Made by a program: the position numbers and the translations under genes | Source: Octopus vulgaris | Taxonomy: Eukaryota | Length of the DNA stretch: 64,000 nt | Direction of reading: 5' to 3' | NCBI GenBank assembly: GCA_951406725.2 | Contig: OX597820.1 | Location: 52,390,001 to 52,454,000, forward strand | Notes under the pieces: model-generated | Databases searched by the model: none | What the model was told of the DNA's origin: nothing | Seen by the model: the letters and a program-made list of their open reading frames with translations, nothing else | In this document: piece by piece, positions 3,221 through 33,272 of the stretch | Numbering within the stretch: the stretch's first letter is position 1 | Layout: every line of letters starts with the position of its first letter

Positions 3221-3285
3221 GTTTAAATATTTGTTGTGCAATATTTTTTATGTGAAGTCGTGTGTTGAAACAGATATTGTTGTAT

Positions 3286-3398
3286 TTAGGAATGGTCATT
3301 TTGCCAGTTTAGCCAATAAATAACACTGAAGCAAAATAACACCAAATATATAGTGCGTGTGTTTTTATTGGCTAAACTGGCAAAATGACCATTCCTAA
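3286..3398. repeat. 35-bp perfect inverted repeat (hairpin) between (TA)n tracts
   Basis: TTAGGAATGGTCATTTTGCCAGTTTAGCCAATAAA (3286-3320) and its exact reverse complement at 3364-3398. Confidence 0.92.
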
Positions 3399-3401
3399 CA
3401 A

Positions 3402-3442
<41 letters not shown>

Positions 3443-3455
3443 CATACATATATAT

Positions 3456-4326
3456 ATTTTTTTCTTGGGGCTGGCCGAGTTGGAGCAAATATCAGAATTG
3501 AACAGCCGAAATTTGCTATGATGATTCGGTGTCTGACTGATGATTGAAGGCTTCGAATGATTTGTCTGTGTTCCGTGTTTGTCCCTTCCTGTATTTCACG
3601 TTCTTTATTTATAAAATATTTATCCCTATATTATTGCGGCGTTACGTGCACCCCCCCCCCCCGTTTGTTTATCACAATTTTAAACTCTGCACGACATCTT
3701 TCTTTCCTGTCCACCATTGCTTCTTGACCAAACTATTTTGGCGCCCTTTTTTCTTCCCCCTCTTCCTCCCATCCTCCTCAATCCCTTATCTCTCTTTTTC
3801 TCTTGGTCTCTGACTGATTCTGTCCCCTGCCTTCCACCCTCTTTGATTCCCTCTCTCTCTGTCTCTCTTTCTCTCTCTCCCCTGCAACCTGCTGCTTCTC
3901 CACCATTTCGTTGGCGATCATATCTCGCCAACATCTGTATTTGTCCCCTCTACCGAAAAGGTAATTATTTCTACGCCAGCTGCTATGTTGTTGTTGTTTT
4001 TGTCTCATTTGATCTAAAGTCGTATGACAACCACCGTTATATTATATTTTGTTTAACCGGTACCGTTTTCAATTTCGTTTTCGTCTCTCGTATTTACATC
4101 CGTCTCGTGCGTTCACATTCCTGTCTTCTACCAAGAAATCTAATGCTTACAGCTTAGTTTTTTTTTCTTGGGGCTGGCCGAGTTGGAGCAAATATCAGAA
4201 TTGAACAGCCGAAATTTGCTATGATGATTCGGTGTCTGACTGAAGATTGAAGGCTTCGAATGATTTGTCTGTGTTCCGTGTTTGTCCCTTCCTATATTTC
4301 ACGTTCTTTATTTATAAAATATTTAT

Positions 4327-4333
<7 letters not shown>
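3456..4333 (+). mobile_element. Non-autonomous element with ~175-bp direct terminal repeats (partial tandem, pLTR-like) in (TA)n
   Basis: 3456-3631 is nearly identical to 4158-4333. The interior is CT-rich, both ends abut (TA)n, and there are no TG..CA LTR termini. Confidence 0.82.
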
Positions 4334-23464: not shown

Positions 23465-23962
23465 AAAGGGTCGAAACTACAAAGACTTCCCGGATTTCTA
23501 CTAATGAGGAAATCGGCTGTGAATGATCGGTGTATCTTGTTTTTGTCTTTTTTGCCGTTTGTCGTGATCTCGTCTATTTTTCCACATGTTGTTCTTTGTT
23601 GCTTTCCATTTGTTGTGTTTTTTTTTTCTTTTCTATCTTTGATTTATCCATGCGGCGCTCCATACAACCTGTTGTTTACTTTGTTAAAAAATGATATCCC
23701 TTGAATATTATGTACGATTCTCGCCCTCTCTTCCTCGCATTTCTCCCCCTTATTTCTTCCGTCTCTCTCTCCCTCTCTCTCCCTCACTCTCTCTGTCACT
23801 CTTTCTCTGTCTTTCTCTGTTCCTCTCTCTTCACCTACCCCTCGATCCTCATTTTATCTGATTTAATTTTCCCTCTCTCGTATTCCTCCATCCTTTTTTC
23901 TCCCTCCCTCTTATTCTTCAATACCTGTGCTTTTCTTCCTGACTTATCACCCTTGAAATTTC

Positions 23963-23998
<36 letters not shown>

Positions 23999-24795
23999 TC
24001 TCTCTTCCTTCCTCTTATTCTTTAGTGCCTCTGATTTCTGTCCCCTCTGTCCTATTCCTTAGTTCTTCTGGCATTTTCAACTCCTTCCCTCTCCTACCAC
24101 GTGATCACTCTCCGGCTAAGGCATTGCCGTCCGTTTTCGACCTGCCGCCTTTCAGGCTGGACGCGTTTATCTGTCCTCCCGCCCGGTCTGTTAAAATTTT
24201 CCATTTTACCTTTGCGCCTGCTGGCTAGGTTCGTCTGATAGTCGAAAGAACCTTTTGGTTGTTATTTTATGTTGTAATTGTACAATTATTTTCCTTTTGC
24301 TGTATAGTCGAAAGGCGATTGTTCAACGTACATATATTTTTTTCTTTTTCTGTTACACTTGCATTATTATTTCATAACGTTACGGTCGTCCGATAGTCGA
24401 AAGACCCTTTCTGTTATTTATTTATTTGTATTCCTATATGTACAACAAAAGTTTTCCTTTCTATTGTATAACCAAAAGTGTTCTATTGTACGTGTATAAT
24501 TTTAGGTTCTCGTTTTTGTTTCTGTTGGTGTTTTCGTTCTTGTATACATTCGTTTGCCTTTCCCAAGGAGTAAAGCTTTTAGCTTAAGTCCCTGGCACCC
24601 GCCGGATTCAAGTAATCATGGAGATAAGGGGGTGAAGCTACAAGGACTTTCCGGACTCCGACTAATGAGGAAATCGGCTGCGAATGATCCATGTATCTTG
24701 TTTTTGTTCTGTTTGCCGCTTGTTGTGCTATCGTCTATCTTCCACGTGTTTTGTTGGTTTCCGTTTGTTGCCTTTTTTCTCTTCTACCGTCGATA
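23465..24795 (+). mobile_element. Non-autonomous partial-tandem (pLTR-like) element, relative of 3456-4333
   Basis: Diverged direct repeats 23465-23640 and 24625-24795 (CTAATGAGGAAATCGGCTG.GAATGATC..TGTATCTTGTTTTTGT). The CT-rich interior shares CTGAT(T)TCTGTCCCCT with ~3815. Confidence 0.75.
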
Positions 24796-32315: not shown

Positions 32316-32825
32316 CTACTTATATGCACTAAATGTATGTTTTTGCCAATGCTTACATCTGTATGCTCGCTCTATAACCGTGTTTACTAGAGTATTTTTA
32401 GAAAAAATAATGAAAAATAGCTCAGAATTGTAGAGAAGACAGAATTTCTTGCCTTTGTCATATGGTATCGGAATTGAGAGAATCAACCATTCTAAATGAA
32501 ATTGTTCATTGTGGTCTTTTAAATCCCAAATCAGTTTGTTGAGACCGGTACTATTCCGTTTATTTCTACCCCTAAATGTTGAGTAATGGATAGAAATTCT
32601 TTTAGATAACTCTAACGATGTGCTTCCAATGAAAAATCGTACTTTATTACGAGTACTGATTATACACTGGTATATAGAATTTTTAATCTTAGAGTTACTT
32701 GACATAAACTTAATTCTATTGGAATTGACTTCAGATACAATAACCTTGTTATTAATATTTCTAGATGATTGGATGGTATTAGCTAAATTAATGTTAGTAT
32801 TAGTAAATGTATTAATATTTAACAG
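32316..32825 (-). pseudogene. PLE GIY-YIG endonuclease domain
   Basis: NSIYQCIIS..RFFIGST..SKRISIHYSTFR..NSTGLNKLIWDLKD..LEWLIL..PYDKGKKFCLL..SE..LVN..RCKH matches the PLE C-terminal GIY-YIG pattern (VYQ..YIG..RY..H..SFR..STELSK.IW.LKD..CxLC..E..LN..CRH). The frame is open upstream of the Met through an N-rich linker. Confidence 0.85.
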
Positions 32826-33272
32826 TTTGCCAATCGTCCTTCAGCAACAACACACCCTGATTAACTCAGTGACTACTACTAAATTCTTGCCACGACAGAG
32901 AGGATGTTCTTGAAACTGAGAATTTGAACCTATAGAAACAATATATACATATCACCTGAGGAAACACAGCTAAAGCTCATAATACAGGGAAGCAGTGGCA
33001 TGATCAAGTACCTGCACGCCTAGAGAACTACACTGCGTGAAAACAATTGTAGTGATTACAAAATAAACGTCCCAACGTACTCTTTCTTGCTGACTCCAGT
33101 CTTTTCCATTTTCTATTCAGACATGACAGATGCCCAAACGCAAGTCCGGAAGTACTTATAATACTACTATTGGCTAGCATGTGGTAAATCTTAAGATGAA
33201 CGGGCTTTATACTGTACACTACGAAATTTTTAACAGAATATACCATAACTATAAACATTATATATATATATT

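Follow-up and report, generated by a model that had tools for sequence, protein, structure and literature searches.

The hammerheads closest to the motif described here are type SGC (HRIMA-1 and its variants) and type CSG, both of which cleave in vitro. In the accessible part of their description (Eckert et al. 2023, PMC10085705), type SGC is known only from metatranscriptomes, with no example in the genome of a known organism, and type CSG from two metagenome sequences; the same text assumes that a hammerhead block cannot be interrupted. Penelope pseudo-LTRs (pLTRs) and non-LTR retrozymes carry hammerheads described, in the available portions of the reports, as canonical type I, often dimer-dependent and with a vestigial stem III (PMC4209133; bioRxiv 10.64898/2026.07.22.740005). 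Naiads, a group of Penelope-like elements, are characterised in the available text of Craig et al. 2021 (PMC8557442) by (TA)n targets, partial tandems, the lack of a canonical hammerhead, and some unplaced core or half-core strings.

We analysed a window of 64,000 nt from Octopus vulgaris (contig OX597820.1), microsatellite-rich animal DNA from a genome of 2.8 Gb. Two non-coding elements in the window share a pseudoknotted RNA motif in their terminal repeats, which a preliminary description had left unassigned. As predicted from its sequence, the motif is a rewired hammerhead with a complete core, in which the blocks follow the non-circular order S-G-C and the core itself is split.

Strand order and core of the motif

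Each of the 13 numbered core positions has its single counterpart in the hammerhead, as have stems I, II and III, so the new ribozyme class entertained in the preliminary description is unsupported. C3-U4-G5-A6-N7-G8-A9 follows stem I (4235-46), G12-A13-A14-A15.1 lies between stems II and III (4211-14), and an NUH triplet sits between stems III and I, its U16.1 pairing with A15.1 in stem III (4188-93:4214-19). An AUA triplet is present in a natural viroid hammerhead, according to the accessible part of PMC1636495. The blocks run S (4188-99), G (4206-19), C (4235-46), an order found in none of the canonical types I, II and III (CGS, GSC or SCG). This bears out the earlier statement that the fold is not a canonical hammerhead, as does the absence of any Rfam hammerhead match up to E 10.

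The 5' strand of stem II sits 70 nt upstream rather than after A9 of CUGAnGA, and the bases that follow A9 pair with a strand 5' of the leader hairpin (L) to give helix E (Table 1). The leader hairpin ends one base before G10.1, and the core, E, L and stem II adjoin without linker bases; together they are predicted to build a four-way junction that lies between A9 and G10.1. The far ends of stem I and of the stem II 5' strand are held together by helix B, which is itself connected to stem III through a kink-turn motif. Kink-turns consist of a canonical helix, a 3-nt bulge, tandem G-A and A-G pairs and a second helix, and the motif has each of these sequence features. The energy minimum recovers E, L and stem II unprompted, while the fold z-score is only -1.4 under a model that excludes pseudoknots.

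Table 1. Elements and motif strands in the window, numbered from its first nucleotide
Feature	Position	Strand	Details
Element 1, non-coding partial-tandem retroelement	3457..4333	+	one ~703-bp unit and a terminal repeat, flanked by (TA)n tracts; the family is young
5' pseudo-LTR of element 1	3457..3630	+	motif copy 5'-truncated; E 5' strand and the greater part of the leader hairpin missing
Helix E 5' strand	4116..4130	+	4116-20 pairs with 4258-62; 4123-30 pairs with 4247-54, one mismatch
Leader hairpin L	4131..4171	+	directly between helix E and stem II
Stem II 5' strand (helix A of the preliminary description)	4172..4176	+	G10.1 = 4172; pairs with 4206-10
Helix B 5' strand and kink-turn non-bulged strand	4177..4187	+	4177-83 pairs with 4227-33; G4186/A4187
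Stem III strand	4188..4194	+	ends in U16.1 (4193) and H17 (A4194); cut predicted at 4194/4195, by analogy
Stem I strand 3' of the predicted cut	4195..4199	+	pairs with 4235-39
Block G	4206..4219	+	stem II 3' strand 4206-10; G12-A13-A14-A15.1 4211-14; stem III strand 4215-19
Kink-turn 3-nt bulge, then helix B 3' strand	4220..4233	+	bulge 4220-22; G4223/A4224
Stem I strand and C3-A9 core	4235..4246	+	stem I 4235-39; core 4240-46; G5 = 4242, N7 = 4244
Helix E 3' strand	4247..4262	+	begins right after A9; includes the conserved tail of the preliminary description
Element 2, non-coding partial-tandem element	23465..24795	+	from an older, related family whose copies are ~80% identical
5' copy in element 2	23465..23527	+	starts ~7 nt 3' of where the cut is predicted; G5 is altered here too
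Full-length but decayed fold copy in element 2	24547..24686	+	U16.1 24616, H17 24617, G12 24634, C3 24662

The strands quoted in the preliminary description are all present and complementary, and its helices A, C and B are real, corresponding to stem II, stem III and the tie between stems I and II. Stem I, the GAAA stretch, the NUH triplet, the kink-turn and helix E are missing from that pairing scheme, and it is because of these omissions that the hammerhead was not seen.

Type SGC shares with the motif the S-G-C order, the full core, the short linker from stem I to stem II and an additional helix between the far ends of stems I and II, the place taken here by helix B. In the accessible part of its description (PMC10085705), block C of type SGC is uninterrupted, with at most 1-2 bases inserted after A9, and the stem II 5' strand comes directly after CUGAnGA; in the motif this strand lies 5' of block S, with E and L in the gap, and the tie helix is joined to stem III by a kink-turn. 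Type CSG belongs to the same cyclic strand-order class, and its stem II 5' and tie strands run into block S as they do in the motif. Its block C is intact at the 5' end, whereas the motif corresponds to a circular permutation in which the opening has moved into the core. The split form may have arisen by just such a permutation of type CSG, which tandem repeats could produce. The Penelope and retrozyme hammerheads likewise lie in terminal repeats and in non-coding tandem units, as far as the available text describes them, whereas the motif differs from these type I forms in its full stem III and three crossing helices. A literature search whose coverage leaves out most subscription journals found neither the motif's layout nor a Naiad hammerhead, and no tested hammerhead with an open A9-G10.1 junction.

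The Rfam check proposed in the preliminary description gave no family at threshold. For the whole window, the best 150 of 264 matches comprise only microsatellite-driven miRNA hits below threshold; positions 4100-4300 gave seven weak snoRNA or sRNA matches below the gathering score, driven by box C/D-like words. HDV-like ribozymes are nested double pseudoknots with the order P1-P2-P3-P1'-P4-catalytic C-P2'. An HDV-like assignment was rejected: the order of helices differs, the J4/2-like tail is the 3' strand of helix E, and there is no Rfam hit.

Conservation and covariation among copies

Exact genomic matches to a pattern that combines GAAA, CUGAnGA and the tail number 5,739, against 0 for the reversed control. 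From 106 complete copies (82 distinct), 58 were kept at <93% identity; five poorly aligned copies were then removed and the element 2 copy was added, giving an alignment of 54. Statistics were computed on the untouched MAFFT alignment, with 44 pairs, 2,352 cells and 500 shuffles.

The compensatory changes that the preliminary description had read from two elements recur in this larger set. Cells changed on both sides number 307 against 122.7 in shuffled alignments, and paired cells make up 85.5% against 76.7%; neither value is reached in any of the 500 shuffles. As the copies are related, the double-sided changes are not independent events, and the number of pairs with such changes (24 against 22.0, equalled in 122 of 500 shuffles) is not above chance. 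Slid registers pair in 22-41% of cells.

Pairing reaches 90.4% in stem I, 91.8% in stem III, 83-94% in helix E and 90.5% in the apical part of L, with 74.7% in helix B and 74.2% in stem II, the last figure being lowered because family 2 is misaligned by one column. Double changes occur in five of the six pairs of stem I and in four pairs of the seven-column helix B. An unbiased scan of 10,775 column pairs places a stem III pair first and pairs of stems I, II and III, as well as of helix E, in the top 14; several other high-ranking pairs are non-complementary and represent phylogenetic noise.

Most of the alignment was gathered with patterns that prescribe GAAA, CUGAnGA and the tail. Among positions left free in those patterns, U16.1 is kept in 52 of 54 copies and H17 is C in 37, A in 15 and G in 2. 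The kink-turn G and A positions are conserved in 50, 51, 51 and 53 of the 54, and N7 is free across families (23 A, 20 T, 7 G, 4 C). In 31 copies collected by BLAST, the core positions are kept in 27-31, those of C3-A9 other than N7 in 28-31, and H17 is divided between 15 C and 15 A. Of 95 genomic pattern matches, among them truncated and decayed copies, 61 have stems I and III in S-G-C order, whereas the same pattern applied to a metagenome as a negative control gave 1 in this order among the 113 matches listed.

The preliminary description had also taken the two copies of element 1 to differ exactly at N7. They differ at 3591/4294 as well, and the T is private, being found in one of 28 aligned family-1 copies; it is the variation between families that bears out the freedom of this position.

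Carrier elements and the Naiad link

Both partial-tandem elements recognised in the preliminary description are real. The terminal repeat of element 1 measures 174 bp, with 98.9% identity between its copies, and that of element 2 ~156 bp, with 81%. The terminal region of element 1 has 40 scored relatives that are ~98% identical, and its 3' tail has 526 exact matches in the genome, in arrays of up to four units. Neither element contains a reverse transcriptase (RT) or endonuclease match. Just upstream of element 1, positions 3278-3405 form a long near-perfect inverted repeat that resembles a small MITE. Within element 2, positions 24231-24314 and 24386-24478 form a repeat of 72% identity with a short conserved GTCGAAAG word, of which a third copy lies at 24307.

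The weakness of helix C in element 2, correctly noticed earlier, is explained by decay of that copy: in it G5 has become A and A15.1 has become G, both minority states, the original base being kept in 29 of the 31 BLAST-collected family copies at either position. Because of these two changes the copy is predicted to be inactive. Helix A as proposed for this element (24596-600:24630-34) does pair, although its range takes in G24634, which is G12 of the core; position 24633 is T where most family copies have C, and the conserved register stops there.

The window elements share partial-tandem pLTRs, 5' truncation, inverted 5' copies and (TA)n targets with Naiads as described in the available text (PMC8557442). 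Partial tandems, 5' truncation or inversion and (TA)n targets are common to other Penelope clades, and so are not by themselves diagnostic of a Naiad partner. From the 54 published Naiad consensi in the supplement of that paper, a sample was taken by motif search and inspected by eye. Approximately 11 of the tails in this sample have the split-core layout: a record in the ctenophore section, Naiad-3_Chem, three from Acropora, two in the Morbakka section, a part-19 record, Naiad_Obim, Naiad_Ovul and, more weakly, Naiad_Esco. By eye, a kink-turn is not evident in the Acropora and Morbakka-section tails, and no such motif was seen in the Naiad-1_Chem and Naiad-2_Chem tails or in the last ~600 nt of Mmer, Omin and Adux. 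Six tails in the nematode section (Naiad-1, -2 and -3_Nbra and three unnamed neighbours, file S5) read by eye as type CSG, with block C intact. In the arthropod-section tails sampled from supplement parts 16-19, several have CUGAnGA after a C-run, in different surroundings.

The Obim/Ovul Naiad tail motif has 295 exact matches in this genome. Locus L351 represents a decayed Naiad of the EN-RT type: on one strand it carries a GIY-YIG-like motif (~1.5 kb), RT motifs (3.1-3.6 kb) and the RNA motif (5.9 kb). The Naiad arrangement of an ORF with N-terminal GIY-YIG followed by RT is thus found, in decayed form, at L351, and is absent from the window elements. The L351 element (L351:1430-5960; G000:C12:47391500-47399500) is near full length and carries an unrelated insertion at ~4.5 kb; the 20-nt endonuclease motif of its family occurs at only two loci in the genome, and non-coding relatives at 98% identity are abundant. 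The L350 ORF has a GIY-YIG match at E 0.0015, below the Pfam cut-off, and twelve extended Naiad-tail loci are 5'-truncated and contain no ORF.

A covariance model built from the non-coding families alone recovers the Naiad motif in the right register, with weak scores of 14-18 bits (E 0.05-0.3), and blastn detected no DNA similarity between the window elements and the Naiad loci compared. The link between the window elements and Naiads is therefore one we infer from RNA architecture rather than from sequence similarity. Penelope loci with a C-terminal endonuclease, collected by GIY-YIG family search, lack the motif and any covariance-model match. A young family of this kind (L097, L102 and many other loci) has 781-aa open frames encoding RT followed by a C-terminal GIY-YIG, short tandem repeats in its 3' region, and no motif. 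On the minus strand of the window, positions 32316-32840 contain a 174-aa open frame that resembles by eye a fragment of a Penelope-type GIY-YIG endonuclease, with no Pfam match.

Insertion 5' ends and alternative readings

In two of the three sets compared, the 5' ends of insertions cluster immediately 3' of the predicted cut. The family-1 set was drawn from the first 100 of 526 matches to a pattern 3' of the core, taking the 5'-most copy per cluster and leaving out one inverted locus, which gave 75 insertions. Thirteen of these end in 4192-4210 (one re-placed by eye) and 11 in 4211-4251, whereas four end in 4111-4191 and none of those in 4161-4191. In 79 copies of other families, 15 ends lie at -3 to +16 from the site against 12 at -69 to -4 (two at -23 to -4, two at -44 to -24, and eight at -69 to -45). 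In stretches expected to be single-stranded after the RT has passed stem II, 7 of 7 and 8 of 10 ends are on the 3' side (p 0.002 and p 0.003), in windows drawn after inspection of the data. The third set, 20 Naiad-type loci scored by eye, has two ends just 3' of the site and two just 5'. RT stalling on the structure could account for part of the pile-up, as could (TA)n microhomology, given that the 20 nt 5' of the site are GC-rich and contain no TA or AT steps. The majority of insertions, among them element 1, continue beyond the site (52 of 75 in family 1, 64 of 79 in the other families). The motif is covered by contigs from four sequencing runs, presumably of RNA, and in two of them the unit-to-unit joint is visible; as the same joint is present in the genome and contigs cannot show ends, they are uninformative on circles or cleavage.

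We propose that the motif is a hammerhead core in S-G-C order, with the backbone open between A9 and G10.1, that likely self-cleaves after A4194 and thereby sets the 5' end of the RNA. We put the probability of this reading at about 0.77. Stacking in the four-way junction would replace the missing A9-G10.1 bond, and the kink-turn would bend helix B back to reach stems I and II. Helix E requires sequence upstream of the leader, so a complete fold is open only to repeats that follow internal sequence of their own. By cutting in the upstream repeat, the ribozyme would free the element transcript from read-through RNA, and this cleavage would be partial, so that tandem templates survive. The carriers are probably non-autonomous Penelope-like elements moved in trans by the RT and endonuclease of Naiads. 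Of the suggestions made in the preliminary description, that of a highly variant self-cleaving ribozyme in the slot of the Penelope hammerhead is the one that stands; a pure RT-recognition role would leave the NUH triplet and the free N7 unexplained.

The hammerhead-derived fold might instead act above all as a site bound by the Naiad protein, or as a switch for it, cleaving poorly or only with protein help. The read-through of the site in most insertions is compatible with this, as are the low in vitro activity of Penelope hammerheads (in the accessible part of PMC4209133), the finding that hammerhead cleavage is dispensable for insertion in vitro in one element, an anole Penelope (PMC11167929), and the kink-turn and conserved apical leader hairpin, which would resemble protein-binding features. 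The avoidance of G at H17 and the free N7 are a signature of catalysis rather than binding, and with the 5' ends that accumulate 3' of the site in two of three sets they make such a role unlikely. A much smaller likelihood attaches to a reading in which the tail following CUGAnGA supplies stem II, within an ordinary type-SGC hammerhead or between tandem copies as a dimer, and helix A acts as an inhibitory alternative. In family 1 the stem II 3' strand is complementary to tail bases 4252-55 and copies stand in tandem arrays, and dimeric Penelope hammerheads are known (available text of PMC4209133). This tail-based stem II was nevertheless rejected: across the 54 copies it pairs at shuffle level (63.0% against 62.9%, with 6 double changes against 5.4), and the tail covaries instead with the strand upstream of the leader. 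The bases after A9 match the stem II 3' strand in no copy, so a dimer cannot supply a contiguous block.

More distant readings fare worse still. The lack of an Rfam family at threshold, among the best 150 of 264 window matches, is what a ribozyme class unrelated to the hammerhead would lead one to expect; the one-to-one mapping of all core positions and three stems, together with the related nematode Naiad tails that read as intact type-CSG hammerheads in the supplement sections sampled, renders this highly improbable. Chance complementarity in decayed repeats is the least probable of all. It could be argued from the two elements initially seen and the low z-score, and it is opposed by the 5,739 pattern matches against none, the covariation, the stem I and III descriptor, and recurrence across phyla.

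More broadly, it is fairly likely that the motif represents a seventh natural hammerhead wiring, active despite a core that is open between A9 and G10.1, where a four-way junction closes it. It would be the missing ribozyme of Naiads in a range of animals that extends from ctenophores and cnidarians as far as cephalopods, type CSG being retained in those of nematodes, and would have left the footprint of its cut in insertion 5' ends. If so, the stated assumption that hammerhead blocks are uninterruptible, as worded in the accessible part of PMC10085705, would be broken, and non-circular permutations would exist in thousands of copies on animal chromosomes, not just in rare environmental RNA. 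This would explain why descriptor searches found no hammerhead in Naiads (available text of PMC8557442), and would end the argument that these elements thrive without a hammerhead. The footprint in 5' ends would offer a genomic route to the role of Penelope ribozymes in transposition.
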